From the IMG/VR virus record IMGVR_UViG_3300042399_002267: a DNA stretch of 64,000 bases, one strand, 5' to 3'. Made by a program: the position numbers and the translations under genes. The stretch is from a virus. This document shows, piece by piece, positions 1,371-35,235 of this stretch (its first letter is position 1; each line of letters starts with the position of its first letter). The notes under the pieces were generated by a model that saw nothing but the letters and a program-made list of their open reading frames with translations, did no database searches and had not been told where the DNA came from.

Positions 1371-1373
1371 AAT

Positions 1374-20176: not shown

Positions 20177-20764
20177 ATGGAAAAAATTGAAGCACTAAAG
20201 TTCTTACTTGATTGGATAGATAATCAAACAACAAATGATTATGTCTTAAATTCATTTAAACCTAACTTGTCTAATAAATTTATTTTAGAAAATAAATATG
20301 AAGTTTATTTAAAGAGTATTTCATGGAAAGCTTTATTATCTATTGATGCTAAGTCATTTAATAAAAATGCTCAAGGTATTTATTTTAGTACAGAAATACA
20401 AAAAAGAGAAATATTAAAGTATGGTCTTGAAAAAATTAAAAATATTTCAAGTAATAAAGAATACTCTGATGACCTACTGAGTATTTTGTCTTATGATGCA
20501 GTTGAAAAAATTTGGATTGAATATCAAAATATTCTTCACTTGACAGCTGAAGAGGCAAATATTATTTATAATTCAGCTAAGAAATATTTTAATAGCGAGA
20601 ATAATGATCTTTATCCTGTACTACCAGAAGTGATAGAAATGGACTATATTCTAAAAGGTATAGTTTCTTTGAGTAGAACAGAGTTTAATAATTTGTCATC
20701 TAAAGAGTTTGAAATTATGCAATTAGTTTTATCTACAAAAAATGAAGTTTTAAAACAATTTTAA
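20177..20764 (+). CDS. putative tail chaperone / hypothetical protein
   Basis: 195 aa helical protein, last gene of the + operon, converging on the sugar island. Confidence 0.5.
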   Translation: MEKIEALKFLLDWIDNQTTNDYVLNSFKPNLSNKFILENKYEVYLKSISWKALLSIDAKSFNKNAQGIYFSTEIQKREILKYGLEKIKNISSNKEYSDDLLSILSYDAVEKIWIEYQNILHLTAEEANIIYNSAKKYFNSENNDLYPVLPEVIEMDYILKGIVSLSRTEFNNLSSKEFEIMQLVLSTKNEVLKQF

Positions 20765-21202
20765 TTCTTCTTTATATTTTGAAACATAATCAGAACATAT
20801 AGCATAGCATTTGGATAAATCTCCCAAATATTTAACTTCTGGCATAACTGCTATAGACCCAGGTATAAGTTGTTTCCCAGGAAATACCCATATATTTAAT
20901 CTTGAAGTCAATGTGCAATAATCAGTTTCATGCCAAAAATATTCAGAAGATAAATTTGATTTTGACATAAATTCCAAAGCCTCAATGTTTTTACAATGAA
21001 CAAAAAATTTATCATTGTCTAGAAATGATTTACCTATCTTGTAATCAGGTTTATCATGACCTAAATATAATCCATCAATAGTTTTCCACAAATCAATTTC
21101 AGCATGAAATCCTAAATCTAGAGCACTTTTGATATATTCAGGGTGATTTTCCTTAGACAGGTTTATTCCTTCAGTATTTCCTCTATGCGCGATAAATATC
21201 AT
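20750..21202 (-). CDS. glycerophosphodiester phosphodiesterase-like (PI-PLC-like) small protein
   Basis: MIFIAHRGN…ENHP…EIDLW…LYLGHD. Minus strand (CAT at 21200-21202). Confidence 0.75.
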   Translation of the reverse strand: MIFIAHRGNTEGINLSKENHPEYIKSALDLGFHAEIDLWKTIDGLYLGHDKPDYKIGKSFLDNDKFFVHCKNIEALEFMSKSNLSSEYFWHETDYCTLTSRLNIWVFPGKQLIPGSIAVMPEVKYLGDLSKCYAICSDYVSKYKEELKLF

Positions 21203-22557
21203 ACATTTTTTTCTAAGAAATAATTTAGATCTTCAGGAGTACCAAGTCCCCACATTTTCGGTATATCAAATGTTTTAATTTTCAAACCAGCTTTTATTGC
21301 TTCATTGAAAACTGGACAAACATAGAATTCTTTATTAACTCTGATATTATTTTCAATCATTTGTTCTGCAAAACGGACATAATCAGAACCATGTTTCCAG
21401 TAATATATACCTACAGTTGCAATATTTGAAATCGGGTTCTTTTCTGCAACTTCTGTTACAAATCCATTTTCGTCTGTTTTAGCATATGACCACTTTGGGT
21501 GAGTAGAATGAAAAGAAACAATACCAGCATCTAAATTTTGCTCATTCATTTTGTAAAAGAAATCTAAACTATTCCATTCAACAAATTGATCTGAATTAGC
21601 TATGACTAATGGTTCATTATTATTAATAAATTCTTTAGCTAGTAAAGTAGTACATGCTGCTCCTTCAGTAACACCTTCAACTTCAACAATTTTGCATCCT
21701 GGAGTAATAAGATTTAACATTGAATCAAGATTGTATTTTTCTCTATGTTCTTTTTGAACAACAAAAATGAAGTTTGCTTCTACAGCCAAATTATCTACAA
21801 CTACTTGTATCATTGGCTTACCATGAACTTCTATTAAAGGTTTAGGAAAAGAATATCCAGCCTGAGAAAATCTACTCCCATGACCTGCCATAGGTATTAA
21901 TACATTCATTTTTTTGTCTACCCATTTTTCTATAGTTTGTTTTTTATGATTGAAAGCTTCTATAATTTTATCAAAATCAAAATCTTTAGGATTTTTTACT
22001 CTAAGAACATTAGCTCCTGATTTGTACGCTGCTTTAAGCCCAGTAGGTGAATCTTCAATAATCAATGTATTTTCTGGTAGTGCACCAAAATATGACATTG
22101 CATTCCAATAAATTTCAGGATGCGGTTTTGCAAATTTTACATCATCATTAGATAGTTTCATATCAAAATACTCTGATATACCTAGCTTTTCTAAAACTAA
22201 ATCTACTGTATTTTTAATAGAGTTTGAACAACATGCAATTTTGAAATCGTTATTTTTAAGATTATTGAAAATTTCAATAAGTTTTTTGTTAGGTTTTAGG
22301 TTTGACAAAGATTCTATTGTGAAAAATTGTTTATCTTTGAATATTTGTGCTTGAATATCATTGTCAAATGGCATGCCTCTAAGATAAAGTAATTTCAACT
22401 TATCATAGGTTTTCATTCCATCAAAAGTTCTTAGATGGTCTTCCCAAGAAATGACATATTTAGGATTTATTTTTTTTAATGCTTCATTTAGAGCATTGTA
22501 ATGAATTTCTTTAGCTTCTACAAGAACTCCATCCAAATCAAAAATAACTAATTTCAT
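21199..22557 (-). CDS. HAD phosphatase fused to a sugar-phosphate nucleotidyltransferase
   Basis: N-terminal DLDGVLV, KPHPEIY and IIEDSPTG (HAD). C-terminal LIPMAGHGSRF…PKPLI (NTP_transferase). Confidence 0.85.
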   Translation of the reverse strand: MKLVIFDLDGVLVEAKEIHYNALNEALKKINPKYVISWEDHLRTFDGMKTYDKLKLLYLRGMPFDNDIQAQIFKDKQFFTIESLSNLKPNKKLIEIFNNLKNNDFKIACCSNSIKNTVDLVLEKLGISEYFDMKLSNDDVKFAKPHPEIYWNAMSYFGALPENTLIIEDSPTGLKAAYKSGANVLRVKNPKDFDFDKIIEAFNHKKQTIEKWVDKKMNVLIPMAGHGSRFSQAGYSFPKPLIEVHGKPMIQVVVDNLAVEANFIFVVQKEHREKYNLDSMLNLITPGCKIVEVEGVTEGAACTTLLAKEFINNNEPLVIANSDQFVEWNSLDFFYKMNEQNLDAGIVSFHSTHPKWSYAKTDENGFVTEVAEKNPISNIATVGIYYWKHGSDYVRFAEQMIENNIRVNKEFYVCPVFNEAIKAGLKIKTFDIPKMWGLGTPEDLNYFLEKNV

Positions 22558-22573
22558 ATTTATCTCTTATAAA

Positions 22574-23389
22574 TTATACAATCATATTGTCATATACTTT
22601 TTGTATTGAATCATGAAGATTAGAAACCTTTATGTTTAAACTTTTTATAGTTCTAAAACTACCACAGTAACTTAAGCCCATATTTTTATCATAAAGTAAA
22701 ATTTTGGATTTTTTATCAGATAAATTATTGATAAAATTTGCTACATCAGTTAACGTATGTTTTTTTTCATAACAACAGTCTATAACTTTAGGCAAATTTG
22801 ATTTAGATAAATAAAATTCAATAACTTTAGCAAGATCATCAATATGAAAAAAATCCATGTATTTATTTTGATGTATCTCTATATCGTCGCCAGACAAGTA
22901 TTTAAGAATATTTCCACGAATCATTCTGGTGGTTAACTCATTTTCATTGAAAACATTATAAATTCTCAAGTTGTAAAATTTACTATGATAGAAGAAAGAT
23001 TTCGCAATCATACTTTTACTTAATCCATAAGGATCAGTGGGAAATCTTTGAAATAAATCATCACCATTTATATTTTGTGTTCTATCAAGTTCAGCTCCTG
23101 AACCAAAATGAATAATCTTTTTAAATTTATTTTCATTTTTAAGGAGATTATTTACCATTAAACAATTTTCATATACCCAGTTGCTATCATCTTGTTGTAA
23201 TCTATTACCGCCTGAAGTTGCACAGTTGATAACTAAATCAAAATTTTTGTCATTGAAGAAATTTTCTAAATTTGCTAAATTCATAAGGTCCAAATTATCT
23301 CTTGTACCCAAAAATAAATTGTAGTCACCTAGACATTTTGCTAAATTTCTGCCAACAAAACCATTACTTCCAGTTATCAATATATTCAT
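22574..23389 (-). CDS. NAD-dependent epimerase/dehydratase (extended SDR)
   Basis: ILITGSNGFVG, YGLSK (YxxxK), NLRIYNVF. Confidence 0.85.
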   Translation of the reverse strand: MNILITGSNGFVGRNLAKCLGDYNLFLGTRDNLDLMNLANLENFFNDKNFDLVINCATSGGNRLQQDDSNWVYENCLMVNNLLKNENKFKKIIHFGSGAELDRTQNINGDDLFQRFPTDPYGLSKSMIAKSFFYHSKFYNLRIYNVFNENELTTRMIRGNILKYLSGDDIEIHQNKYMDFFHIDDLAKVIEFYLSKSNLPKVIDCCYEKKHTLTDVANFINNLSDKKSKILLYDKNMGLSYCGSFRTIKSLNIKVSNLHDSIQKVYDNMIV

Positions 23390-23394
23390 TTTAA

Positions 23395-24219
23395 TTAGTT
23401 AAGCTTTTCTTTCCAAAAACTTACAAAATCATGCACTGTTTTCAAAGAATCATTTTGAATTGACTCCAAGTGCGGTTTGACCAAAGGCAATGTTTCTATA
23501 GCTCTTTCTGTGTCTTCACCACCATATGAAACACCATATTTGTTGATAGAGTATGCATTTAGCCAGTCTTCTTTTGACAAATTGTAATCTGGTACTACAA
23601 TAGAAAAACATCCACATAATGCTGCTCTTACTGAACAAAAACTAGATGCATCATAACTTAAAAATATATTTGATTGATTCATTGCCCATTTAAGAATATT
23701 TTCATCATTGTATTCTTTTTCAATATCATCGTAAACAAAAATATTTTTTAATTTAGAATGCCAATTTGATGAAACTTTATGAGCACCTTTTCTAACCAAA
23801 ACTGTATTGTAATTTCTAATGTCTTTATTTTCATTAGTCCAGAAATCTAATGCAAAATCATTAATCCTCAATATTCCATCGCATTTATTGAACTCTGAGC
23901 CATAGTATGGATAATATTTGAAGATATAATCATTCTTATTGGGATAAGAAATTGTTTGATGAAAAAGCAACCATCTAACTACATGTTTAGCATTCAAAGG
24001 ATTATCAGTGATACATTCTGGATATATTACAACAGTATTTTCAGAATCGAAACCTTCTTCTTCATTGTAATGCGGAGTGATATAGTTGGGGTTTGTTTTA
24101 TTTTCAGATACAATGCAGGCATCTTCCCCTATACGATTTAAGTAGTCACAGAGCTTATGCATAACACGTACTCCGCCCACATGTTTTTGCCATTTCCATG
24201 TCCAAATAATAAATTTCAT
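23395..24219 (-). CDS. glycosyltransferase-like protein, paralog B
   Basis: GGVRVMHKLC…VIYPE…NPLNAKHVVRWLL…AALCGC, a GT-B-like phage/LPS family. Paralog of 25323-26141. Confidence 0.55.
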   Translation of the reverse strand: MKFIIWTWKWQKHVGGVRVMHKLCDYLNRIGEDACIVSENKTNPNYITPHYNEEEGFDSENTVVIYPECITDNPLNAKHVVRWLLFHQTISYPNKNDYIFKYYPYYGSEFNKCDGILRINDFALDFWTNENKDIRNYNTVLVRKGAHKVSSNWHSKLKNIFVYDDIEKEYNDENILKWAMNQSNIFLSYDASSFCSVRAALCGCFSIVVPDYNLSKEDWLNAYSINKYGVSYGGEDTERAIETLPLVKPHLESIQNDSLKTVHDFVSFWKEKLN

Positions 24220-24226
24220 TTTATTC

Positions 24227-24703
24227 CTACTTTTTTAAGTTTATATACGCTGGAACATTTCTGTCTAAAATGTTTTCTATAGCAATTTCAAGATGCTTGT
24301 TGTCAGATGGCTTAAAGCATTTAATGTTTTTAAAATTTTCCATAAATAAAAAATCATCATTTGCCCAATGAGAAAATCCTAAATATCCATAATCTTGATC
24401 TCTTCCGCCACCAATTATGACTACAGGAGTTTTTTCATGATCTATGTAATTTCTTATTACTTCAAAAGGTCTAAAAATAGCAAAAGGTGTTATAGAATAG
24501 ACAAATGGTTTTTTATTTTCAAGAGCCATACCACATGCAGCTCCCATCATCAATATTTCTGATGATCCAAAATTATAAAATTGATCTGGGAAGTGTAGTC
24601 TTATATCGTCAAAAATTCCATAACCAAGATCTCCAGTGCAAAGAACTATATTTGGATCTTCTTTCATTTTATTAAATAATAAATTCGCAAAATATTTTCT
24701 CAT
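24227..24703 (-). CDS. transketolase-like ThDP enzyme, pyrimidine-binding subunit (short)
   Basis: TGDLGYG, NFGSSEILMMGAACGMA, GFSHWA. Lacks the C-terminal domain. Confidence 0.8.
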   Translation of the reverse strand: MRKYFANLLFNKMKEDPNIVLCTGDLGYGIFDDIRLHFPDQFYNFGSSEILMMGAACGMALENKKPFVYSITPFAIFRPFEVIRNYIDHEKTPVVIIGGGRDQDYGYLGFSHWANDDFLFMENFKNIKCFKPSDNKHLEIAIENILDRNVPAYINLKK

Positions 24704-25344
24704 TTTTCTACACTATTGTAATCTTTTTCTGTCATTATATGATAATGAGCATTCAATCCCTTTAGAAATGGGTATTGTTCTACAGATGTATATTCAATGT
24801 TTATATTTGGCAAGAAACACTTCAATCTGCTAACTAAATAATCTACATCTACTTCATCATATGCAGCATAACCATTAACATTTACGTACACATGAATATT
24901 AGAAATTTTTAATTCATAAATTGTTTTAAGTGATTCCCAAATACTACCTTCTGCACATTCTCCATCGCTAATTAGAACATATACATCTCTATTTTTATTA
25001 GCTAATGCTCTACCAACTGCAACTGTTATACCAAGCCCAAGACTACCAGTAGAACAATAAATTTCATTTTGTTCATCTAGATGTGGATGCCCACCATTTT
25101 CTTCAAACAAAAATTCAGCATCAATATTTTTGTATTTTTCTATACAGACATAAAGTGCCAAAGAAGCATGTCCTGATGAAAGAATAAAAATATCATCAGG
25201 TTTCATAATAGAATAAATTTTGTCAATGATTTCTAAACTTGAAAGATAACTTCCAAGATGACTCAATCTATTCTTGTATGCTATTTCTAAAATTCTAAGT
25301 TTTAACTTTTCTGAATCTTGAATCAAATTATTTTTTCTTCCCAA
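24700..25344 (-). CDS. transketolase-like ThDP enzyme, N-terminal (PP) subunit
   Basis: SHLGSYLS, FILSSGH, STGSLGLG and the ThDP motif SDGE…NVN. Confidence 0.85.
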   Translation of the reverse strand: MGRKNNLIQDSEKLKLRILEIAYKNRLSHLGSYLSSLEIIDKIYSIMKPDDIFILSSGHASLALYVCIEKYKNIDAEFLFEENGGHPHLDEQNEIYCSTGSLGLGITVAVGRALANKNRDVYVLISDGECAEGSIWESLKTIYELKISNIHVYVNVNGYAAYDEVDVDYLVSRLKCFLPNINIEYTSVEQYPFLKGLNAHYHIMTEKDYNSVEK

Positions 25345-26141
25345 AATTTAACAAATTTATGCACTGTATCTAAAGCATTTTCTTCTAATTGTTTCAAATG
25401 TGGTTTGACCAAATGTCGTGTATCAATTGCATGTTGAATATCTTCATACCCATACGCCACACCGTACTTGAGAAATTTACGATCATTTATCCATTTTTCT
25501 TTAGAAACACCCCCGTCTGGAATAACTACAGATACACATCCACATAATGCAGCTTGAGCTGCTATAAAAGAACATGAATCAAAACAAATAAAATTTTCAG
25601 ATTTATTCATCAAATTTTTAATTATTGTTTCATTTTGCTCTTCTTCTATCTCATCATATACTAATATATTTCTTAATCCATCATGATATGAAGGGTGATA
25701 TTTTCTGTGTCCTTTTCTCACCGCTACCATATTATAAGATCTATCTTGATTTTCATTTGTCCAAAAGTCAAGATTAAAATCATGAATTGTCAAAATACCA
25801 TCACATTTATCGCCTTTTGTTAAATAAGATTCAAAATATTTAAATATGTAATCATCTTCGCCATAATTTGCAGTGATGTCTTGATTAAAAAGAATCCATC
25901 TAACTACATGTTTAGCATCCAATAGATTTTTATCTATACATTCAGGATATATTACTACAGTGTTGTCCTTATCAAAACTTAATTCCGGGTCATGATACGG
26001 AGTATTTAAATTTGGATTTGTTTTCTTCGTTGTAATATAAGCTTCTTGACCAATTTCATTTAAGTAATGACAAAGATTATGCAAAACTCTTACACCACCA
26101 ACATGCTTACTCCAACCCCATGTCCAAATAATAAATTTCAT
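25323..26141 (-). CDS. glycosyltransferase-like protein, paralog A
   Basis: Aligns end to end with 23395-24219 (MKFIIWTW…GGVRV…VIYPECI…HVVRW…AALCGC). Confidence 0.55.
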   Translation of the reverse strand: MKFIIWTWGWSKHVGGVRVLHNLCHYLNEIGQEAYITTKKTNPNLNTPYHDPELSFDKDNTVVIYPECIDKNLLDAKHVVRWILFNQDITANYGEDDYIFKYFESYLTKGDKCDGILTIHDFNLDFWTNENQDRSYNMVAVRKGHRKYHPSYHDGLRNILVYDEIEEEQNETIIKNLMNKSENFICFDSCSFIAAQAALCGCVSVVIPDGGVSKEKWINDRKFLKYGVAYGYEDIQHAIDTRHLVKPHLKQLEENALDTVHKFVKFWEEKII

Positions 26142-26678
26142 TTATTTTTCCTTAGCAAAGTCTGCAAATTCAACCAGAATAGTATTTACACCATCTTCTC
26201 TTAATAAAGCTTTTTCGTATGCTGGTAAAATTTGCTCAGGCTTATATAACTCAATAACTTCAATATTTTTAGTCATTGATCTGAATGCATCAGAAAAATT
26301 ACCTTTGTGTTGAGATTGTGGATCAACAGGTCTTTCACTTCCCACAGCAACTCTTATTATGACTTTTGGAGATAATTTTCCATCTGACATTTCAATAAAT
26401 TTATCCAAATGATTTACTATTTGATCTACTCCCATTAGAAGAAAATTCCATCTTGGAAAAATAGAAACTGGTATCATTCCAGCTATAGCCATTCCATTAG
26501 CTAAACCAGATTGGAAATATTCAGCAACAGGCAACTCTATTCTTTTTTCTTCAGGAATGTGCTTTAAGGAATCATACAACCCTGTTCCTTCATACAATAC
26601 TGCTTGCCCTAAAAAAACAGTTTTTGGATTGTCTGATAATAAGCTCATTGCTTTCTGCAATTCTTCAAAATATGACAT
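26142..26678 (-). CDS. 2-oxoacid dehydrogenase E1-beta-like ThDP subunit (short)
   Basis: FLGQAV, ELPVAE…GLANGMA, PKVIIR, PQSQH. Lacks the C-terminal domain. Confidence 0.8.
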   Translation of the reverse strand: MSYFEELQKAMSLLSDNPKTVFLGQAVLYEGTGLYDSLKHIPEEKRIELPVAEYFQSGLANGMAIAGMIPVSIFPRWNFLLMGVDQIVNHLDKFIEMSDGKLSPKVIIRVAVGSERPVDPQSQHKGNFSDAFRSMTKNIEVIELYKPEQILPAYEKALLREDGVNTILVEFADFAKEK

Positions 26679-27304
26679 TAAAATTGCACTCTCATACCTG
26701 CTCCAGCATGTGGGTATTTTGTATTATTGTATTGATAATAAATAAGATTTTTTTGTCTTAAAATTCCACCATTGTATTCACTTTGAAGATAATAGGGAGT
26801 TGATCTTCCCCAAATCTTATCAGTTGGAGAACAGACTGATTTTTTGTTATCTTCTACTATAAAAGTTATTGGTAAGTTATGATTCAAACTGTATTTGTAT
26901 GCTTCGTGAAAAGCTCCAGTTTCTGCTGTCATATCTCCCACCCAACACCAGACATGTTGTGCATTTCCAAGAAGTTTGTTTGCAAATGCTATTCCTGTTG
27001 CAATTGAAGGTATACCACCTACTATTGAACTGCAAATAAATTTATATTCTGGAAGAGTCAAAACCATAGATTTACCATTAATAATATTATCTTTTAAAAT
27101 ATCTGATGGTATACCCTTAAGTAATGCTTGATAATGATTTCTCCAAGTGCAACATACCCAATCATTTTCTTTATCTATTTTTTTAAATATTTCAATCATT
27201 AAATCTTCATTTCCGTAATACAAATGAATTGGTGACTTAATTTTTTTATTATTAAAAAGATCAGCTATTTCAGACTCAAATTCAATTAATTCGTCTTTTA
27301 CCAT
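26678..27304 (-). CDS. 2-oxoacid dehydrogenase E1-alpha-like ThDP subunit (short)
   Basis: PIHLYYGNE, TWRNH, SSIVGG and the ThDP motif GDM…EDN. Confidence 0.8.
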   Translation of the reverse strand: MVKDELIEFESEIADLFNNKKIKSPIHLYYGNEDLMIEIFKKIDKENDWVCCTWRNHYQALLKGIPSDILKDNIINGKSMVLTLPEYKFICSSIVGGIPSIATGIAFANKLLGNAQHVWCWVGDMTAETGAFHEAYKYSLNHNLPITFIVEDNKKSVCSPTDKIWGRSTPYYLQSEYNGGILRQKNLIYYQYNNTKYPHAGAGMRVQF

Positions 27305-28254
27305 ATAAATTTACCTTTGTAATATTTAGCTATTTCTGCTATTTCATTTTCAAAAATAGCTTCTTCTTTCCAACCTAAAGACCTCAATTTCGAATCGTCT
27401 AATGAATATCTAAAATCTTGACCTGGTCTTTGGTAACTAAAGTCATAAAAATGATCTTTGTTTTGTGTATTGGGAAAATAAATATCTACAATTTTGTTAC
27501 ACACTTCAATATTTGTAAGCTCAAATTGACTTGAGACATTGAATATTTCATTTTTTGAGTCTGATTTAATAATTTTAATTACAGCATTCGCTGTGTCTTT
27601 TGCATGTAACCATGTTCTATGAGATAATCCCTTATTGTGCAAAGGCAATTTTTTTCCAAGCTGTAAAAATTTACAACATTTTGGAATTAGTTTCTCAACA
27701 TATTGACCCAAACCATAGTTGTTTGTTGGTCTAAGAATGACATAAGGAATATTGTATGTTCTAGCCCATGCAAGAATTAACATATCAGCACTAGCTTTTG
27801 TAGCTGAATATGGATTAGAAGGCATTAATAAATGATCTTCTGAATGTGATCCACTTTCAATATCACCATAAACTTCATCTGTGCTGAAATGAAAGAATGT
27901 AGGTAGTTTATTAGTATCAATATTTGATCTTCTGATTAGATTTAAGATATTAGATACTCCTAGAATGTTTGTTGATAAAAACTCATCATTTCTTGCAATT
28001 GAATTTCCAACATGTGTTTCAGCAGCAGTGTTAATAAAATAATCACAATCAAACATCCTATCAAGATCACAAATATCTGTTTTTTCAAATCTAAAATTTT
28101 CATATAAATTGAATTTTTCTAAATTTGAAATATTTGCTGCATATGTGCATTTATCTAATCCAAATACATACCATCCATTGTCTAAACAGGCTTGAGTTAC
28201 ATATGCACCAATAAAACCTAAACATCCTGTGACATAAACAACTTTTTTACTCAT
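27298..28254 (-). CDS. rfbB: dTDP-glucose 4,6-dehydratase-like
   Basis: VTGCLGFIG, DKCTYAAN, AAETHV, STDEVYG, PYSATKAS, NNYG, RPGQDFRYSLD. Confidence 0.8.
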   Translation of the reverse strand: MSKKVVYVTGCLGFIGAYVTQACLDNGWYVFGLDKCTYAANISNLEKFNLYENFRFEKTDICDLDRMFDCDYFINTAAETHVGNSIARNDEFLSTNILGVSNILNLIRRSNIDTNKLPTFFHFSTDEVYGDIESGSHSEDHLLMPSNPYSATKASADMLILAWARTYNIPYVILRPTNNYGLGQYVEKLIPKCCKFLQLGKKLPLHNKGLSHRTWLHAKDTANAVIKIIKSDSKNEIFNVSSQFELTNIEVCNKIVDIYFPNTQNKDHFYDFSYQRPGQDFRYSLDDSKLRSLGWKEEAIFENEIAEIAKYYKGKFIW

Positions 28255-29566
28255 GGTAATTCCTCATAAAACTATCAACCATTTCTTTGATATAAGATAT
28301 CTGTTCTTCAGTAATTACTGGAGAAGTACCTAAAAAGAATGTGTTGGTGGTAATAAAATTAGCCATTGGGAAATCTTTTAATTGAAGATCCCCAATTAAA
28401 TGAGAATACGCAGGCTGCACCAAGATATTCCCAGCAAAATATGGTCTTGTTTGTATTTTTTTTGACTCTAAGTATTGACACATATCACTTCGCTTAAATG
28501 GAGAGTTTTCTCTAATAGTCAATGGAAATGCAAACCAATTTACATCTGCTTTTAATTGTGGTCTAGGTAAATGAAAATATTCTTCGTATGGACTAAATAT
28601 ATCAAATAAAAGTTGATAGTTTCTTTTTCGTAATCTTGAAATTTCATCAAATTTATCAAGTTGAGCCAAGAGCATAGATGCCTGTACTTCAATAGGCTTA
28701 AGATTATAGCCTACTTCTTCATATACATATTTGTGGTCAAAAACTTCACCAGGTATACTCGGTAGCCATTCTGAAAATCTAGTACCACATGCTCCGCATT
28801 CAGTAATGTTTTGTTTACCAATACAAAAACATCCTCGACCCCAATCTCTAATTGAACGAATCACTTTTTCCACTTGCTCGTTGTTACAAGTTATTAATCC
28901 GCCTTCTCCACAAGTAATATGATGAGCAGGATAAAAAGAGCAAGAAGACATAAGACCGAAACTACCCAAAGGGTTACCGTCGAATGTGGACCCCAATGCA
29001 TCACAGCAATCCTCTAATAAAATTAAATCATGTTCTCTGACTAGACTCATCAATTTATCTATGTCTGGCGGATTACCAAGCACATGTGCAAAAGTGATTA
29101 TTTGTATGTCAGGATCTTTTTCTAAAGCTTCTTGCACAGATTTTAAATCTAAATTTAGACCGTCAATCTCGATGTCAACAAAAACAGGAGTAAATCCACA
29201 TTGAAAAATTGGATTTATAGTGGTTGGAAATCCAGCAATTGGAGTTAATACTTTTGTACCAGCTGGAAAATTTGTAAGTCTTTTTGACTTGAGTGCAGAC
29301 ATCATAAGAAGATTGCTGCTACTACCAGAATTAGTTAAGAGAGCATATTTTTTTTGAAACATGCTGGCTAGTTTTTTCTCAGCTTTGTGTGCTTCTGCTC
29401 CTAAAACTAGCCAGCCATCAAGCAAAGTAGATATAGATCTTAAAATTTCATCTTGATTGAAAAAAGGACCAGCATAATGGACATGATCCTTACCTGGTCG
29501 CCATTTTTTAGCTGGCTCTGAAATTATATAATCTTCTATTACTTTTAATAAATCTTGCTTTTCCAT
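28247..29566 (-). CDS. rfbH: CDP-4-keto-6-deoxyglucose 3-dehydrase (RfbH/DdhC, E1)
   Basis: NSGSSSNLL, EDCCDALG, SFYPAHHIT (His in place of the aminotransferase Lys), WGRGCFC…C iron-sulfur Cys, HKYVY…GYNLK. Start placed at ATG 29566. Confidence 0.85.
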   Translation of the reverse strand: MEKQDLLKVIEDYIISEPAKKWRPGKDHVHYAGPFFNQDEILRSISTLLDGWLVLGAEAHKAEKKLASMFQKKYALLTNSGSSSNLLMMSALKSKRLTNFPAGTKVLTPIAGFPTTINPIFQCGFTPVFVDIEIDGLNLDLKSVQEALEKDPDIQIITFAHVLGNPPDIDKLMSLVREHDLILLEDCCDALGSTFDGNPLGSFGLMSSCSFYPAHHITCGEGGLITCNNEQVEKVIRSIRDWGRGCFCIGKQNITECGACGTRFSEWLPSIPGEVFDHKYVYEEVGYNLKPIEVQASMLLAQLDKFDEISRLRKRNYQLLFDIFSPYEEYFHLPRPQLKADVNWFAFPLTIRENSPFKRSDMCQYLESKKIQTRPYFAGNILVQPAYSHLIGDLQLKDFPMANFITTNTFFLGTSPVITEEQISYIKEMVDSFMRNYHE

Positions 29567-29573
29567 TAAATGC

Positions 29574-29603
29574 ATTATACATTCAATGCATTTTATCTGT
29601 CAA
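29574..29603 (-). promoter_or_regulatory. sigma70-type promoter TTGACA-N18-TATAAT, probably leaderless, overlapped by an inverted repeat
   Basis: Both hexamers are perfect. The -10 ends 7 nt before ATG 29566. Confidence 0.7.
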
Positions 29604-30324
29604 TAAGATCAGAAAGATCCTCAGACAATAATAGATTTTTCTTATAAATTTCCATCTGTTCATCATATTTGATGAAGTGCTGTTTTCCAAAACCATGAGC
29701 AATATCTGATCTAGAAACTTTTGAGGCTATTTGTAGCTTGCGCTTAATTAGTTCATGTGTCATTGGGGAAAATCCATACCATAAGATATCAAATTCTTCA
29801 TTATCGTGATTATGAAGATGCCTTCCTTGAGCAAAAGGTGCAAAATAATTACTAAATCCTCTACACCATCGATAACATTTATCCCAAACACCTTCCTCAT
29901 ATCTAATTCCAAATCGTTTAATGTCAGTAAGTTGATCATCGTGCGAAAGTTTTTGGTCTAAATCTTGAACATCATCTACCATAATATTGGATCTCAAACT
30001 TAACATAGTTTTTGGACCATAGTTGTCAAGTTTGGTAAAATCACCAACTATAAACTCTGTTGTGTTTAAAGTTATGCGCCAACCTTCTTCAATCAACATG
30101 TATGAAATTTTATTATTCTCTTGTTCCAGCATTATAGAATCAAATTCTCTTAATCCAGTTTTGACAATTGTCCAATTTGGAGCATAATGTCTAATTATAT
30201 CTATAGAATTGTCTGTTGAATTATGATCTATTAAAATTCCATGATCAAAATATTTTTGATGATGCTTAATCCACCAAGGCAATAAATATTCTTCATTGTA
30301 AAAATGGGTCATTACTGTTTTCAT
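29593..30324 (-). CDS. glycosyltransferase family 2-like protein
   Basis: THFYNEEYLLPWWIKHH…IDHNSTDNS, a GT2_4-like N-terminus. Confidence 0.75.
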   Translation of the reverse strand: MKTVMTHFYNEEYLLPWWIKHHQKYFDHGILIDHNSTDNSIDIIRHYAPNWTIVKTGLREFDSIMLEQENNKISYMLIEEGWRITLNTTEFIVGDFTKLDNYGPKTMLSLRSNIMVDDVQDLDQKLSHDDQLTDIKRFGIRYEEGVWDKCYRWCRGFSNYFAPFAQGRHLHNHDNEEFDILWYGFSPMTHELIKRKLQIASKVSRSDIAHGFGKQHFIKYDEQMEIYKKNLLLSEDLSDLIDR

Positions 30325-31535
30325 TTTTCTACCTTATATTCTGGAAAATATTTAACAAATACATCATTACTAATGTCTCTAGATTTGCAAATTCTTTCCC
30401 TTATTTCATCATAAAAATTCCAAGCCAGTGGGACAAAACATATCTTTTCAATATTATTTTGAAGAAGTGCAATAGAGCAGATTTCAATGTCTTGTCCAGG
30501 AGTAAGATATCCCCATTTCATTTCATTATCATCAATAATATAATCTAACTTATATTCTATATAATTAAGTAAAGTATTACCCTTAGCAGCTGCCCCATAA
30601 CCAACTAATAAATATCCAGCATCACGAAACTCTTGTAAGCCTTGCAATAATTTGGATTTTGTTTCCGAAGCTTTGTTTGCAAATGAAAAATATTTTTCAA
30701 CTGTGTAAGTATTGTTATATGACTCAATACCCATCAATTCATCAAGTTCTTTTTCATCACAAGATTCATTTTGTAAAGAAAATAAGAAAGATTTGCTGTG
30801 TATGTCAGTTTTGACAATACTAGATACATACATCTCATGGTTTCTGGCTAATTTCTTTATTGAACTACCAGTAAAATAAGATGAGTGCTCATGATAAATA
30901 ACATCAAATTCATTATTCAAAAACATATCGCATTGAGACGTTTGAATAAATATTTTACCGCCTGGTGCTAAAACATTTTTACATGCCCTGATAAATTCAT
31001 TAGGATCTGGAACATGAGGTAAAACATGGAAAGCTAATATTAAATCAAATAGTTTTTCTTTTTGTTTTAACGTATTAGAAAATCTCATACCCCAAAAATC
31101 AACAAACACATTTAGATTTCTTTTTGCTGCTAGTTCATGAATATTTTTGGCAGGATCTACACCTACACACTCAAATCCATCTTTTTGAAAAATTTCAAGA
31201 AAAAGACCAGAATTACAGGCAATTTCTAAAACTCTGCCTGTCTTGAAACCAGATTCATTTACAATATAGTCTTTTGCCCATATGAAATAATCTGTTAATG
31301 TTTTCGTAGTATCGGAAATATACAAATAATGCTCAAACATTTCTGATGGCTCTACAGAAACAGATAACTGTGAATGCCAACAATTTAGGCATACTCTCAT
31401 TCTCAACGGAAATTTCTTTAGCTGTTCCCCGTGATGGTAAGAATTAGCAAGCGGTTGATCATTGAGGTCAAGATATTCAATTTCTACTGGCTCTTGACAA
31501 ACTAAACAATATTTATTCTCTGTATATCCTGACAT
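30321..31535 (-). CDS. NDP-hexose C-methyltransferase
   Basis: Zn finger CLVC…CLNC, VLEIACNSG, YHEHSSYF and C-terminal GYGAAAKGNTLLNY. Start at ATG 31535 is coupled to the upstream stop. Confidence 0.85.
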   Translation of the reverse strand: MSGYTENKYCLVCQEPVEIEYLDLNDQPLANSYHHGEQLKKFPLRMRVCLNCWHSQLSVSVEPSEMFEHYLYISDTTKTLTDYFIWAKDYIVNESGFKTGRVLEIACNSGLFLEIFQKDGFECVGVDPAKNIHELAAKRNLNVFVDFWGMRFSNTLKQKEKLFDLILAFHVLPHVPDPNEFIRACKNVLAPGGKIFIQTSQCDMFLNNEFDVIYHEHSSYFTGSSIKKLARNHEMYVSSIVKTDIHSKSFLFSLQNESCDEKELDELMGIESYNNTYTVEKYFSFANKASETKSKLLQGLQEFRDAGYLLVGYGAAAKGNTLLNYIEYKLDYIIDDNEMKWGYLTPGQDIEICSIALLQNNIEKICFVPLAWNFYDEIRERICKSRDISNDVFVKYFPEYKVEK

Positions 31536-32425
31536 TAAAAATTTTCTCTCTTTGCCCATTTATTATTTGTAGGGTTTACTAATAATGATTTCACAATATT
31601 TTCAATACCATCTTCAAACTTAAAATTAAATGTTTCAATAAATTTGTTAGATGATATTTTAAAATCATATGTAAAAGTTTTGCCTTTATCAACAAATTCG
31701 GAATCAGTGAGCTCCGCAACTTTTTTACCAATATTTGTAACATTTTCATTAAATGACGCTAAGTTGTATATGCCTCTTTTATCTTCGTCAGAACATACAA
31801 TAGCTTCAACCCCACGACATAAATCATTTATAGACAATATAGGTCTGTATACTTGACCATTAAAAACATTTACTTGATTTGTTTTCATTGCAGAAAATGT
31901 CATAGAATTAATCATCAAATCAAGTCTTGTATTTGGAGACCATCCATTCACACTACCAAACCTTAATCCATAAAATTCAATATCACTCAATGCTGCAAAA
32001 TGATCAATAGTAGTTTTAGTAAGTGTTAAACCATCAATTGGATTTAAAGCACTATTTTCAGTTTTCTCATCTTCACCTGATGCAACGTACACACAAGAGC
32101 TGGATGCATAAATAAACTTTTGTTTATTTAATTTCTTCATCAGATTCACAAATTTAATTACATTATTGTTAAATGTGTCATGCAAATCAGAGCATAGTTG
32201 TACTGATGAATTAGCAGCAGTAAGAACTACAACATCAAATGAATCAAGATATTTTTTTGAAAGCAAATCATAGTCTGTTTTGAAATTAGAAAGATTCTCA
32301 GTTTCATTGAAGTTTCCAAAATATTCAAGATCAACAGTATGAACATCAAAATTCAATTTCTTGAAATATAATCTTAGTGCTGAACCAATATAACCACATC
32401 CACCAATAAGTAGAATTTTTTTCAT
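31535..32425 (-). CDS. NAD-dependent epimerase/dehydratase
   Basis: LLIGGCGYIG, YASSSCVY, GLRFGSVNG, RLDLMIN. Confidence 0.85.
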   Translation of the reverse strand: MKKILLIGGCGYIGSALRLYFKKLNFDVHTVDLEYFGNFNETENLSNFKTDYDLLSKKYLDSFDVVVLTAANSSVQLCSDLHDTFNNNVIKFVNLMKKLNKQKFIYASSSCVYVASGEDEKTENSALNPIDGLTLTKTTIDHFAALSDIEFYGLRFGSVNGWSPNTRLDLMINSMTFSAMKTNQVNVFNGQVYRPILSINDLCRGVEAIVCSDEDKRGIYNLASFNENVTNIGKKVAELTDSEFVDKGKTFTYDFKISSNKFIETFNFKFEDGIENIVKSLLVNPTNNKWAKRENF

Positions 32426-32434
32426 AATATTATA

Positions 32435-33316
32435 TTATATCATAAAACTAAAAGAATTTTTAGTTTTCTTTTTAAGACAAAAATTCAGAGAATATGGTCT
32501 TAACGAATTTGTCCGATTGATCAAGTCATTATCAAAAAGATAACTTTGATTATTTCCCAGAAATGGATAACTTTGTATTTCAAAATATTCAGAAAATAAT
32601 TCTTTCCATTGGTCTTTGCTATTTGTTGAATTATGATAGCCTTCCCATATTCTATCTATGTTGATATCTCCTAAATCTCTTGGATTACCCCAGATACTCT
32701 TAGAAATTCCACGATCAATATTTAAAGTAGATTTAGGACCATAGACTTGATTAGATGATATATCATAATAATATTGATTTTTACCATCAGGTGAATCAGG
32801 AAAACTTTCATCCGGTGGACCATTTTGTTTGTGTAAGTGAAAATGATTTTGACCAAATGGAACATTACCTATTAAAATTGATTCTAAGTGCATAATATTT
32901 ACTAGTTTTTCAAATAAATTGCACAATGAATCTTTACTAAGATGTTCAAAAAATTCTGATGCATGAATTACATCAAATTTAATTGGCAAACCATCTTTTA
33001 ATATTTCAAATGGATATCTCAAATCAACATTAAATAAACACTCTTGGTAATGGTCTCTCCAGCAATGTAAATTATTCTTGTATGCAAAATCACTACCTTC
33101 TAATCCAACTGCTGTATGCCCAAGATTATAAAAATCTGTGATAAATTGTCCACCAGCACACCCTAAATCCAATATGTTAATTTTATCTTTATTTATAAAT
33201 TTTTCTATTTGATGAATTAATAAAGGATTAGTATTATTGTCAAAAAATATACCATCAGGAAAAATATGATCCGGTATATCTAGCGCTACTGGATTATCTG
33301 TTTTAATTTCAATCAT
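32435..33316 (-). CDS. class I SAM-dependent methyltransferase
   Basis: ILDLGCAGG, VGLEGS, FDVIHASEFFEH. Confidence 0.8.
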   Translation of the reverse strand: MIEIKTDNPVALDIPDHIFPDGIFFDNNTNPLLIHQIEKFINKDKINILDLGCAGGQFITDFYNLGHTAVGLEGSDFAYKNNLHCWRDHYQECLFNVDLRYPFEILKDGLPIKFDVIHASEFFEHLSKDSLCNLFEKLVNIMHLESILIGNVPFGQNHFHLHKQNGPPDESFPDSPDGKNQYYYDISSNQVYGPKSTLNIDRGISKSIWGNPRDLGDINIDRIWEGYHNSTNSKDQWKELFSEYFEIQSYPFLGNNQSYLFDNDLINRTNSLRPYSLNFCLKKKTKNSFSFMI

Positions 33317-33344
33317 TGATATTCCTCATAACCAATTGTACAAT
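33316..33344 (+). promoter_or_regulatory. sigma70-type leaderless promoter TTGATA-N17-TACAAT-N6-ATG
   Basis: -35 at 33316-33321, -10 at 33339-33344, ATG at 33351, no SD. Confidence 0.65.
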
Positions 33345-33350
33345 ATATCT

Positions 33351-34328
33351 ATGATTACAAGCAAAACTCCATATAGAATAAGTTTTTTTGGTGGCGGAAG
33401 TGACTTGGAATCTTATTATGAAAAAAATACTGGATATGTAATTTCTACATCAATAGACAAGTATATATATCTTAGTATTAATAAAAAATACGAAAAATCA
33501 ATACGTGTAAATTATTCAAAAACTGAAAATGTTAATAATGTAAGTGAAATTAAACACGATATTGTTAGAGAAGTATTGAAATATTTTGAGTTAACAAGTT
33601 ATTTGGATATTACTTGTGTGGGAGAACTTCCATCCAACGGTACTGGACTTGGTTCGTCAAGTGCATTTACTGTTGGTTTGATCAGTGCATTAAATAAATA
33701 TTTAAGATTGAAACTATCTACTCATGAAATTGCTAATTTAGCATGCCATGTTGAAATAGAAATATTGGGAAAATGCATAGGTAAGCAAGATCAATATGCT
33801 TCAGCATTTGGTGGGTTTAATGAAATAATATTTGAAAAAGATGGAAATGTTCTTGTCAATCCATTGAATGTTTCAAAAGACTTAATTGCCCATTTACAAA
33901 ACAATCTTTTGCTTCTTGACACAAAAAATCCAAGAAATGCAGAAGATATTTTAGTTAAACAATCTGATAACATTAAAAAAAGTTCAAATGTATCTGACAA
34001 TCTTTCGAAAATGATTGATTTAGCAAAAAATTTCAAAGATATGTTGCAGAAAAATGATATAGACAATGTTGGTTATTTATTGCATGAATCATGGATCTTG
34101 AAAAAGAATCTTAGTGATTCTATAAGTAGTAATCATATTGATCAGATGTATGACTTTTGTATGAGCCTTGGAGCAGAAGGTGGAAAATTATTAGGAGCTG
34201 GTGGCGGTGGATTTCTATTAATTTATGCTAAGCCTGATATAAAAAAGAAAATTAAAAATTTCTTTTCAGATTACAATCCATCAGATATCAAAATAAATAC
34301 AAATGGCACTATTGCTAAATATATATAG
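33351..34328 (+). CDS. hddA: GHMP-family sugar kinase (HddA/WcbL-like heptose-7-phosphate kinase)
   Basis: TPYRISFFGGGSD, GTGLGSSSA, GKQDQY, GGKLLGAGGGGF. Confidence 0.85.
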   Translation: MITSKTPYRISFFGGGSDLESYYEKNTGYVISTSIDKYIYLSINKKYEKSIRVNYSKTENVNNVSEIKHDIVREVLKYFELTSYLDITCVGELPSNGTGLGSSSAFTVGLISALNKYLRLKLSTHEIANLACHVEIEILGKCIGKQDQYASAFGGFNEIIFEKDGNVLVNPLNVSKDLIAHLQNNLLLLDTKNPRNAEDILVKQSDNIKKSSNVSDNLSKMIDLAKNFKDMLQKNDIDNVGYLLHESWILKKNLSDSISSNHIDQMYDFCMSLGAEGGKLLGAGGGGFLLIYAKPDIKKKIKNFFSDYNPSDIKINTNGTIAKYI

Positions 34329-34333
34329 TTAAA

Positions 34334-34365
34334 AAAATAAGGGGAGAAAAATCTCCCCTTATTTT
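34334..34365. terminator. bidirectional rho-independent terminator between hddA and MCP
   Basis: AAAATAAGGGGAGA-aaaa-TCTCCCCTTATTTT between convergent genes. Confidence 0.85.
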
Positions 34366-34380
34366 ATATAGTGTCAGTAA

Positions 34381-35235
34381 TTAGCTGACGGTGATTCTGG
34401 AAACTGCGTAATCGTTGATTAATGCAAATCCGAGTTCTTCGTAAACAACCCATCCAAGTCTGAGTCTCTTTGGATCGTCAGCTGGGAGGACAGTGATGTC
34501 TTGGCGAACTGGGAGAGCACCAACGAATTGTGCAGGTGCGAGAACGTATACAGAGTTCTTAGGAACCATTGTGGAAACGTGGATGTCTGCGGAATAAATA
34601 TGTCCGTAGAGACCAGTCATAAGAACGTCTCTTTGAGTTGCCTCATCGAAGAATTCCTTACCCCAGTTTCTGATATCCTTGTATCTTTGTGGGTGAAGAA
34701 CAACCTTAGCACCAATGAGTTCGTGCTCTTCGATGAGAGTCAACGCAAGGTTGATGTTCTCTGGTTGAAGAGTACCGGAAACAGTGATAGCTTGGTCAGT
34801 TGGAACACCAGCATTGACAACCTTGAAGACTTCTGTATCTTCTTGTCTTTGGAGGGAATCCTTTGCGCGAACCTGTGCTCTATCGACAATGTAAAATCTT
34901 CTTTGGCGAATTTCGTTAAGTCTGATTTGTGGATGTGCAGCAAGTTCAATTGTTGGGACAAGGAGCTCTTCAGCTTCAACTTCAGCAGAAGGAACAGCGC
35001 CTCTCTTAGGAATAACATAGGACTTTACAGCTACATCTCTCTCATATCTTGCAAGAGCGCCTTGTGGGAGCTCATCAACCATGAGAAGTTTTCTACCGAT
35101 AGCTTGGTACATAAGGGAAGTCTTGATTGGCTCAACCATAGCTTGAGCTAATGCTGTGCGTCCCTCAGGAGTTTCGAGAGCCATCGCAATGATAGCTTCT
35201 CTCTGCTCGTTTGTATTTCTTTTGATCATTGACAT
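34381..35235 (-). CDS. major capsid protein (HK97 fold, 284 aa)
   Basis: Last gene of the protease-scaffold-decoration block, with strong SD AGGAG and high-expression codon bias. HK97-like E-loop/P-domain pattern (…RAKDSLQRQED…VVLHP…GLYGHIYSADIHVS…EELGFALIN). Confidence 0.85.
   Translation of the reverse strand: MSMIKRNTNEQREAIIAMALETPEGRTALAQAMVEPIKTSLMYQAIGRKLLMVDELPQGALARYERDVAVKSYVIPKRGAVPSAEVEAEELLVPTIELAAHPQIRLNEIRQRRFYIVDRAQVRAKDSLQRQEDTEVFKVVNAGVPTDQAITVSGTLQPENINLALTLIEEHELIGAKVVLHPQRYKDIRNWGKEFFDEATQRDVLMTGLYGHIYSADIHVSTMVPKNSVYVLAPAQFVGALPVRQDITVLPADDPKRLRLGWVVYEELGFALINDYAVSRITVS

Follow-up and report, generated by a model that had tools for sequence, protein, structure and literature searches.

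Branching of 4-keto-3,6-dideoxy sugars by a thiamine diphosphate (ThDP)-dependent enzyme is established for YerE, and a reductase such as YerF normally acts after the branching step (PMC9306805). Enzyme pairs resembling pyruvate dehydrogenase (PDH) E1, of the alphaKADH2 type, add two-carbon (C2) units from pyruvate (PMC4753412, PMC12247030); for split transketolases the addition of a hydroxyacetyl group has been proposed, and both kinds of branching enzyme are otherwise known from secondary-metabolite pathways (PMC12247030). In mycobacteriophages, the subunits of capsid and tail tube are the proposed targets of phage-encoded glycosyltransferases (GTs), according to the summary of Freeman et al. 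2023 given in PMC12619734. Sugar-synthesis clusters are common in large phages, and here we analysed one of sixteen genes (positions 20750-34328; hereafter the island) in a 64,000-nt stretch of the IMG/VR virus record IMGVR_UViG_3300042399_002267 (hereafter the window). Judged from its genes, the island is very probably a working cytoplasmic factory for nucleoside diphosphate (NDP)-activated branched deoxy-sugars, combined with the transferases that use them, and virion proteins are the best single candidate for the acceptor of these sugars, a part of the reading that we hold only tentatively.

The window corresponds to bases 17974-81973, read on the reverse strand, of a viral contig of 119,812 bp that has 32% G+C, no terminal repeats and a CheckV completeness of 33%. 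This DNA is a fragment of an uncultured giant tailed freshwater phage, because the window carries a set of virion genes (an HK97-type major capsid protein (MCP), a portal, a terminase-like protein and a Mu gp36-like adaptor) and because relatives of its MCP were found on contigs of 300-488 kb. The 120-kb fragment (G000) was compared with four relatives that are 84-100% complete (G001-G004), and some searches took in five such relatives. A megablast search of the island against 50,697 phage records gave no match.

The sugar island and its predicted chemistry

All sixteen sugar genes have intact frames; fifteen lie on the minus strand and one, a convergent GHMP kinase gene, on the plus strand (Table 1). 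The fifteen make up an operon, read from 33316 down to 20750, in which neighbouring genes overlap or stand no more than 17 nt apart; the gene at 20750-21202 shares 15 nt with the 3′ end of the convergent gene on the tail side, and the G+C content of the island is that of the genome. An uninterrupted row of sixteen sugar genes cannot be due to chance. An earlier reading made from the letters of the window (the sequence-only reading) had proposed such a rare-sugar island here; its open reading frames (ORFs) were borne out, and every enzyme family that it named was recovered with Pfam and NCBIfam, with amendments in several places. The kinase gene is where it was placed, with the difference that its start, as read from the sequence, is most likely the ATG and not the TTG. 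The nucleotidyltransferase is present as well, in fusion with a HAD domain of the beta-phosphoglucomutase class. Among the three proteins called GT-like, Pfam recognizes GT2_4, while the two others are without a Pfam match and are GT-B enzymes by predicted fold only. The two putative epimerases/reductases do belong to short-chain dehydrogenase/reductase (SDR) families, but the 296-aa one has Leu in place of the catalytic Tyr.

The firmest family call of the island, as far as sequence can make it, is the RfbH/E1 3-dehydrase, which scored 436.3 bits against the NCBIfam equivalog NF011936 (cut-off 423) and matched the Yersinia E1 structure PDB 3bcx at 1.2e-91. The His that replaces the pyridoxal-phosphate-binding Lys is kept (His220 equivalent), AHHIT of the query aligning to AHHIT of 3bcx, and a chain of PDB 3bb8, which we take to be the H220K variant, has K at this position. 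The four Fe-S cysteines are kept too (CC of EDCCDALG and C-x-C...C), with a four-residue insertion before the last one; they presumably correspond to the [2Fe-2S] ligands numbered Cys193/251/253/261. In the 4,6-dehydratase, which on sequence can be called RmlB-like only, the motifs GxxGxxG, TDEVYG and YSATK are present, and all three domains of the C-methyltransferase scored above their cut-offs (PF08421 Zn 49.8, PF13489 88.1 and PF08484 C-terminal 89.9 bits). The 4,6-dehydratase, the E1 3-dehydrase and the C-methyltransferase, which is of the TylC3/TcaB9 type, thus look catalytically intact by their sequences.

Among the accessory proteins, the 271-aa SDR has a YGLSK motif, the best PDB matches of the kinase are heptose kinases (4n3o, 3k85 and 4usk, at about 1e-41), and GT2_4 gave no PDB sequence match. 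The HAD-nucleotidyltransferase fusion matched 4evw (a nucleotidyltransferase) and 6h8y (a beta-phosphoglucomutase) in the PDB and has at least 8000 homologues at E<=1e-10, the best 120 listed being 73-100% identical and lying on contigs of up to 370 kb; apparently it is a signature gene for the giant phages of this group. The 150-aa GDPD-like protein has no Pfam match and a 58%-identical homologue in the island of one relative (L088).

Both ThDP pairs are reduced to the PP and Pyr domains, and both keep the ThDP/Mg motif and the activating Glu. The E1-like pair matched E1_dh at 1.7e-16 and Transket_pyr at 2e-06, with the ThDP-binding motif GDM...EDN and the Pyr-domain Glu in PVAE. Against the NCBIfam models of PDH E1 it scored far below the cut-off and aligned to the N-terminal halves only (positions 16-179 of 315 for alpha and 7-155 of 327 for beta); in having separate PP and Pyr subunits it fits the alphaKADH2 type, and it lacks the full-length E1 architecture. 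Copies that are 75-79% identical occur in four other viral contigs. The transketolase (TK)-like pair matched Transketolase_N at 4e-08 and Transket_pyr at 1.3e-14 and carries the motifs SDGE...NVNG, SSGH and STGSLGLG; it had no match to Transketolase_C, and its scores fall far below the equivalog cut-offs. Its PP subunit has 3851 short homologues at E<=1e-5, of which the best 120 listed are 72-95% identical. Homologues of 200-214 aa that consist of the transketolase N part only come from freshwater and marine metagenomes, including Tara, where the source annotation is just 'transketolase'. A YerE-type enzyme, that is, one like acetolactate synthase (ALS) with TPP_enzyme_N, M and C domains, was not found in the window island.

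Gene order suggests that the island is built of three cassettes, each with a branching enzyme followed by a GT, namely the C-methyltransferase with GT2_4, the E1 alpha/beta-like ThDP pair with one GT-B, and the split-transketolase pair with the paralogous GT-B. In the pathway that we propose, the HddA-like kinase and the HAD-nucleotidyltransferase would convert a sugar phosphate into an NDP-sugar, from which the RmlB-like dehydratase would make an NDP-4-keto-6-deoxyhexose, and the E1 dehydrase, working with a host reductase of the ferredoxin or flavodoxin type, would remove the 3-OH to give an NDP-3,6-dideoxy-4-ketohexose. This 4-keto intermediate would then be diversified by the three cassettes, each with its own GT: in the first the C-methyltransferase would add a methyl branch and GT2_4 transfer the product; in the second the E1-like pair would add a C2 acetyl or hydroxyethyl branch from pyruvate, as in yersiniose, for transfer by the 272-aa GT-B; and in the third the split-TK pair would add a hydroxyacetyl branch from a ketose donor, for transfer by the 274-aa GT-B. 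The 271-aa SDR would reduce the remaining keto group, and the S-adenosylmethionine (SAM)-dependent methyltransferase would O-methylate. A capacity for branched-chain 3,6-dideoxy and C-methyl sugars, as the sequence-only reading had predicted, is supported by the intact motifs, by the ThDP precedents and by the islands of relatives.

The logic of a kinase, a phosphatase and a nucleotidyltransferase resembles the heptose pathway. The pathway to GDP-D-glycero-D-manno-heptose (GmhA, HddA, GmhB and HddC), considered on account of the HddA-like kinase and the SDR that resembles 6vo6, was rejected because GmhA is absent (no SIS_2/GmhA match in the fragment or the four relatives), the HAD domain is of the beta-phosphoglucomutase class and not GmhB, and the dehydratase is RmlB-like.

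The island site in relatives and the GT-B family

The island was compared in 26 loci that share an MCP of 95-98% protein identity. The stretch from the MCP gene to the tail genes measures 0.9 kb in two of these relatives (L087, L091), 8 kb in two others (L069, L086) and >10 kb in most. While the MCP proteins differ little, the MCP genes are 75-88% identical in DNA and the portals 62-70%, which indicates that the site of the island has been kept over considerable divergence; by the same identities the MCP is under unusually strong purifying selection. RfbH is found in 17 of the 26 islands at 76-82% identity and, with the HAD-nucleotidyltransferase (73-76%), is better conserved than the portal.

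The content of the islands is mosaic, their 230 ORFs falling into 82 clusters. In a Pfam census of these clusters we found SDRs, 4,6-dehydratases, DegT aminotransferases, proteins with Transket_pyr and E1_dh, FkbM methyltransferases, NeuB, three YerE/ALS-type ThDP enzymes, HpcH/HpaI aldolases, an acetaldehyde dehydrogenase and an HMGL-like aldolase; an RmlC-like epimerase, a PfkB kinase, a B12-radical SAM enzyme and a LAGLIDADG endonuclease were also found. An aldolase, an acetaldehyde dehydrogenase and a YerE-like enzyme have been described beside ErwE/ErwF for erwiniose (PMC9306805). Since the islands of relatives hold the same set, the theme of the island in this clade would thus be C-branched 3,6-dideoxy sugars with varied branches, as far as gene content indicates. 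In some relatives the MCP gene is followed directly by LAGLIDADG homing-endonuclease-like genes (L073:10904-12112, plus a second cluster), and they could drive island turnover. Many relatives also have a second module on the opposite strand, with Mpo1-like, PfkB, RmlC-like, DegT and B12-binding radical SAM genes, a module absent from the window (examples are L071:13792-14121, L096:13340-14119, L078:13323-13829 and L074:8536-10065).

The GTs of the second and third cassettes belong to a family that neither Pfam nor NCBIfam covers: the pair gave no match to either even at E 5, and 79 homologues are without a precomputed Pfam domain. The AlphaFold2 (AF2) model of the 272-aa protein has a predicted local distance difference test score (pLDDT) of 93.2 and a two-Rossmann GT-B fold, and Foldseek matched it to GT4-type enzymes (8xsh, 7qsg, BshA and PimA) with probability 1.0 and TM scores of 0.5-0.6, T4 alpha-glucosyltransferase standing at rank 28 of the fold matches. 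The 274-aa paralogue departs from the family alignment at none of its invariant columns. With a profile built from the family, 3136 cluster representatives were recovered, some of them joined in one chain to GT2, GT9, methyltransferase or TPR domains, and the occurrence of other GTs in such longer proteins supports the call as transferases.

No close relative of the window GT-B was found in 185,579 species genomes. The family was seen in 68 viral loci, some of them on contigs that bear the label of giant-virus metagenome-assembled genomes (GVMAGs), and in the 68 loci it occurs together with the 271-aa SDR (36 loci), the dehydratase (35) and RfbH (30), sometimes also with the E1-like pair (75-79% identical) or the TK-like pair (41-55%). 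The GVMAG-labelled carriers are L035, L038, L042, L044, L046, L047, L051, L054, L059, L062 and L063, some of them with a TK-like pair and an RfbH-like gene; the GT-B module may be exchanged between phages and the giant viruses of eukaryotes, or else the GVMAG bins may be mislabelled. All five of the long carriers tested proved to be gp23-type phages (18 carrier records were searched), four of them of 160-236 kb and one an 85-kb fragment.

Candidate acceptors of the sugars

In the explanation that we prefer, the sugars would be placed on virion surface proteins that are made simultaneously, with the decoration protein, the MCP and the tube proteins flanking the island as candidates. As a whole, pathway and virion acceptor together, we offer this explanation as a possibility, with reserve. 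The island directly follows the decoration-protein and MCP genes and precedes the tail-tube-like genes, the same junction holds sugar islands in relatives, and glf and a GT8-NPCBM gene lie inside the virion module. None of the island proteins has a predicted transmembrane helix or a membrane-type hydrophobic segment, and all are soluble. Neither an initiating transferase (Bac_transf, PF02397) nor the flippase Wzx (PF13440) was found in G000-G004, a search that did not extend to the Wzy and Gtr families. Soluble enzymes without phage export genes, at a fixed site beside the capsid genes, fit a direct glycosylation of virion proteins in the cytoplasm.

Upstream of the island, on the same strand, the order is a scaffold-like 559-aa gene, the 225-aa gene and the MCP gene. 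By its predicted fold, the product of the 225-aa gene is a decoration protein of the gpD/beta-tulip type: the VIA Z scores were 11.9 for HFTV1, 10.8 for XM1, 9.9 for Pam3 and 4.8 for lambda gpD, and the top 25 rows were all phage virion proteins, nearly all of them capsid decoration or cement proteins. It carries variable Ser/Thr/Gly/Ala loops, in an alignment of relatives it varies most in loops rich in Ser/Thr/Ala/Pro, and among the MCP, tube-like and decoration proteins it is the only one with variable Ser/Thr/Gly loops. One relative (L081) has two copies of the decoration protein.

The sequence-only reading had placed the island between tail and capsid modules; its capsid side is confirmed by the MCP match, while its tail side stands on weaker evidence, namely look-alikes in the ESM Atlas. 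There the tube-like proteins fell into clusters of Phage_tube_2, Baseplate_Tube_p140 and Phi812 tail-tube, with a feature score of 0.94 for the 457-aa protein and a TM score of 0.73, normalised by target, for the 952-aa protein, which is moderate evidence that these two are tail-tube- or baseplate-tube-like. The large plus-strand proteins on this side had no PHROG or Pfam match, and a tblastn search of them against public phage records gave one weak match to a 'tail tubular protein' and one blank.

The glf gene, encoding UDP-galactopyranose mutase, was found in the head operon, as had been stated before. It is present in three of five near-complete relatives (L149, L150 and L151), and in G001, the relative for which its position was worked out, its distance from the MCP gene is about 16 kb, much like that in the window. 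One carrier of glf, G003, has neither the sugar island nor any SDR gene, so a separate, simpler modification based on Galf, independent of the island, may exist. The GT8-NPCBM protein of the neck gene block gave no PDB sequence match. This neck region (107-4642, plus strand) is an AT-rich block of 26% G+C that also holds two small genes of unknown function, one with a weak beta-helix match, and a gene for a 492-aa protein with a KxDG ligase-like motif.

A number of results weigh against this explanation. On the side of the pathway, an E3 (DdhD/AscD) reductase, for which the rest of the genome had been pointed to, was not found (PF00175 matched nothing in the 120-kb fragment, nor in the five relatives of 84-100% completeness); since the phage encodes no E3, the E1 dehydrase would need a host reductase, as SpnQ does. 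The lack of GmhA is a second gap. The dehydratase scored 276.5 bits with TIGR01181, below the cut-off of 365.1, though well above its scores for the CDP type (55.8) and the GDP type (52.4), and the kinase 188 bits with the HddA model NF049969, below the cut-off of 600. In the 296-aa SDR, LTLTK aligns to YGIDK of its best PDB match, 6vo6; without the catalytic Tyr it may be inactive or use another mechanism. On the side of the acceptor, Ser/Thr C-terminal extensions were found neither on the MCP, which ends in ...SRITVS, nor on the tube-like proteins, whose ends are hydrophobic or aromatic; the proposed late-promoter motif AGG-N17-TAGAA occurs at chance frequency and is absent upstream of the island; and a terminator-like hairpin lies between the convergent MCP and kinase genes. 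Peripheral GTs of O-antigen synthesis are likewise without transmembrane helices, and solubility therefore does not discriminate between acceptors. In the one bacterial neighbourhood considered, that of an Erythrobacter metagenome-assembled genome, the GT-B homologue directly follows Wzx in a cluster with Wzy_C, two GT2, DegT and an acetyltransferase. In T4-like phages the GT-B module lies 14-104 kb from gp23, which means that adjacency to capsid genes is not general; a general linkage of the module to capsid genes across viruses was thus tried and failed there. The sugar chemistry of the sequence-only reading therefore stands; virion decoration is not established, with position and solubility in its favour and the Wzx/Wzy and T4-like contexts against it.

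The strongest rival, which we regard as rather unlikely, is remodelling of the host envelope: the phage GTs would modify undecaprenyl-linked O-antigen, capsule or S-layer units that the host then exports, and the surface, changed during the long infection by a giant phage, would block superinfection or alter recognition by grazers. Host-surface modification is the published reading of the polymorphic sugar clusters of jumbo phages and cyanophages in section 3.4.10 of PMC7824862 and the corresponding passages of PMC12801897, a reading that counts against virion decoration, although the accounts in these passages show no experimental function. In favour of envelope remodelling stand the Erythrobacter homologue, which sits in an O-antigen-type Wzx/Wzy locus, the T4-like modules, which are not beside capsid genes, and the mosaic islands of relatives, which have the pattern expected from diversifying selection on a surface antigen. 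It fits less well with the failure to find an initiating transferase or a flippase in G000-G004 and would require the flippase, polymerase and ligase of the host to accept up to three foreign branched sugars; nor does it account for a site fixed in the clade between capsid and tail-tube genes, with further GTs and glf in the virion module.

A different cytoplasmic acceptor, such as a host protein (flagellin, pilin, an S-layer protein or a defence sensor), a non-structural phage protein or a small molecule, is distinctly improbable. The solubility of all the enzymes would suit it, as would the fusion of some GT-B family members to TPR protein-binding repeats and the origin of the other alphaKADH2 and split-TK enzymes in secondary-metabolite pathways (PMC12247030), but no aglycone, polyketide or nonribosomal peptide synthetase genes lie nearby, no host target can be named, and the position in the virion module would go unexplained.

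That the island is partly decayed cargo, gained by horizontal transfer and since deprived of part of its function, is very unlikely. The 296-aa SDR without its catalytic Tyr, the 150-aa GDPD-like protein, which looks truncated, and the ThDP pairs, which are without the C-terminal domains of their cellular relatives, could be taken for signs of decay; against this, none of the sixteen frames is interrupted and the genes are tightly coupled, the key catalytic motifs have been preserved, RfbH and the HAD-nucleotidyltransferase are more conserved among relatives than the portal, the short ThDP forms make up large conserved families of their own (with the 3851 matches given above), and the G+C content matches the genome.

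Hypermodification of DNA, in which the sugars would be put on hydroxymethylated phage bases as protection from restriction, as in T-even phages, is the least probable of all: phages are documented to carry a variety of glycans on their DNA (Pyle et al. 2024, cited in PMC12619734) and T4 alpha-glucosyltransferase appears among the GT-B fold matches, but that match reflects a generic likeness among GT-B enzymes and ranks far below those to GT4 enzymes, the neighbours of the island are virion and not replication genes, and no thymidylate-synthase-family enzyme (PF00303), as is needed for 5-hydroxymethyl pyrimidines, was found in the fragment or the five relatives, island carriers included, which disfavours an alternative that the sequence-only reading had allowed.

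Table 1. Genes and other features of the sugar island and of the neighbouring virion modules.
Feature	Coordinates	Strand	Evidence or remark
GT8 glycosyltransferase with NPCBM-like domain, neck gene block	1374..3173	+	PF01501 6.3e-07, PF08305 5.9e-05; possibly related to the island
Tail-tube- or baseplate-tube-like genes (952, 132 and 457 aa), abutting the island	15553..20175	+	ESM Atlas
150-aa protein, weakly GDPD-like N-terminal half	20750..21202	-	PDB 1v8e at E 0.032
HAD (beta-phosphoglucomutase class) and sugar-1-phosphate nucleotidyltransferase fusion	21199..22557	-	HAD_2 4e-29, NTP_transferase 5.2e-13
Short SDR, 271 aa, candidate ketoreductase (YerF or 4-ketoreductase role)	22574..23389	-	PF01370 at 1.6e-22, RmlD-like N-terminus
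Paralogous GT-B, 274 aa, putative cassette 3 transferase	23395..24219	-	57% identity to the 25323-26141 protein
Minimal split transketolase-like ThDP pair, putative cassette 3	24227..25344	-	PP 24700-25344 (214 aa), Pyr 24227-24703 (158 aa)
Compact GT-B, 272 aa, putative cassette 2 transferase	25323..26141	-	Predicted fold
Minimal E1/alphaKADH2-type ThDP pair, putative cassette 2	26142..27304	-	PP 26678-27304 (208 aa), Pyr 26142-26678 (178 aa)
RmlB-like NDP-hexose 4,6-dehydratase	27298..28254	-	GDP_Man_Dehyd at 1.2e-53
E1-type pyridoxamine phosphate (PMP)/[2Fe-2S] NDP-4-keto-6-deoxyhexose 3-dehydrase (RfbH/DdhC)	28247..29575	-	NF011936
GT-A-like glycosyltransferase GT2_4, putative cassette 1 transferase	29593..30324	-	PF13704, 30.5 bits (cut-off 27.5)
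NDP-hexose C-methyltransferase (TylC3/TcaB9 type), putative cassette 1 branching enzyme	30321..31559	-	Methyltransf_13, Methyltransf_23, Methyltransf_14
Extended SDR (epimerase/dehydratase fold), 296 aa, Tyr replaced by Leu	31535..32425	-	PF01370 at 5.8e-19
SAM-dependent methyltransferase (O- or N-methylation), first gene of the operon	32435..33316	-	Methyltransf_23 at 6.6e-07
GHMP sugar kinase, HddA-like	33351..34328	+	GHMP_kinases_N and _C; ORF opens at TTG 33336, likely start ATG 33351
Terminator-like hairpin with T-runs, readable on both strands	34341..34358	.	Between convergent MCP and kinase genes
Major capsid protein	34381..35235	-	phrog_2522 at 1.3e-68
Predicted capsid decoration (cement) protein, 225 aa, candidate acceptor	35265..35942	-	AF2 pLDDT 76.5 and VIA
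UDP-galactopyranose mutase glf, in head operon	50616..51737	-	PF03275 at 6.6e-59; possibly related to the island

Elsewhere in the window, a 370-aa protein with the C-terminal domain of DNA polymerase III beta (sliding clamp) is encoded at 60939-62051 on the minus strand.

Comparison with known systems

Among the closest known systems is the pathway to yersiniose A of Yersinia pseudotuberculosis O:VI (DdhA-D, YerE and YerF), in which a 4,6-dehydratase and an E1-type PMP/Fe-S 3-dehydrase act first, a ThDP enzyme then adds C2 at the 4-keto group, and reduction with NAD(P)H follows (PMC9306805); the window E1 is an equivalog-level match. The island differs from it in that its ThDP enzymes are two-subunit E1- and TK-like proteins, not a YerE-type ALS-like flavoprotein, and its dehydratase is RmlB-like rather than of the CDP type (276.5 versus 55.8 bits); the phage is also without E3/DdhD, and the setting is viral, without O-antigen export genes having been found. 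YerE-type enzymes do occur in the islands of relatives.

For the second cassette, the actinomycete alphaKADH2 enzymes AviB1/AviB2, Pau11/Pau12 and KbDH-alpha/beta are the nearest counterparts, with separate E1alpha- and E1beta-like subunits encoded beside deoxysugar genes and a specialisation in the transfer of C2 from pyruvate to form branches on keto sugars (PMC4753412, PMC12247030). Unlike these, the phage subunits have just 208 and 178 aa and consist of PP and Pyr only, are viral and come with a putative GT-B of their own; their branching activity is a predicted one. The third cassette resembles the split transketolases of miharamycin and amipurimycin, which are encoded by two TK-like genes and for which transfer of a C2 ketol to a keto sugar is proposed (PMC12247030), a precedent that is itself unproven in vitro; the phage pair (214 and 158 aa) differs in having no TK C-terminal domain and in belonging to a family of short forms from aquatic metagenomes. 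Whatever the acceptor, such compact ThDP pairs (208+178 and 214+158 aa) would be of biocatalytic interest for making tertiary-alcohol branched sugars (PMC12247030), and a GT-B family of more than 3000 clusters is without a Pfam or NCBIfam model.

With virion glycosylation in mycobacteriophages the island shares a link to capsid and tail-tube subunits, as it sits between the two gene sets; those phages, in the summary given in PMC12619734, use host sugar nucleotides, few GTs and C-terminal acceptor extensions, in contrast to the predicted 16-gene pathway without extensions found here. If virions of this clade are glycosylated, they would carry variable, self-made glycan coats, with a bearing on adsorption, grazing, particle stability and immune recognition. 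Flagellin glycosylation islands of bacteria are variable, lie beside the structural gene and combine rare-sugar synthesis with cytoplasmic GTs that act straight on the structural protein, without lipid-carrier or export genes. By analogy with them, one may conceive of the locus as a mosaic capsid glycosylation island that, with two-domain ThDP enzymes and a GT-B family not modelled in Pfam or NCBIfam, coats virions with lineage-specific 4-C-branched 3,6-dideoxy sugars, a viral counterpart that we regard as conceivable and rather doubtful; the likeness is one of analogy only, a shared marker gene such as Maf not having been looked for. Should it hold, viruses would for the first time be seen to use these branching chemistries, and the diversity of virion surfaces would gain a new axis.

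The sugar clusters of jumbo phages and of large cyanophages such as P-SSM2, S-SCSM1 and S-SCSM2R likewise hold SDRs, kinases, nucleotidyltransferases and several GT families and vary between relatives, as the relevant passages describe them (PMC7824862, PMC12801897), and the GT-B module of the window has homologues in gp23-type phages of 160-236 kb. In contrast to them, the site in the clade of the window is fixed between the MCP and tail-tube genes, and 3-deoxygenation with three kinds of C-branching, predicted in the window, is not described for those clusters in the same passages. The island is a well-defined test case, with a fixed site by the most exposed capsid genes, clear cassettes, natural variants that range from no island to >10 kb, and DNA modification largely excluded. 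Phage sugar clusters and virion glycosylation are both kinds already known; what appears to be new here, on the evidence of the genes, is a conserved hotspot between capsid and tail-tube genes, a three-cassette design, viral branching enzymes of minimal alphaKADH2- and TK-like form, and the GT-B family.

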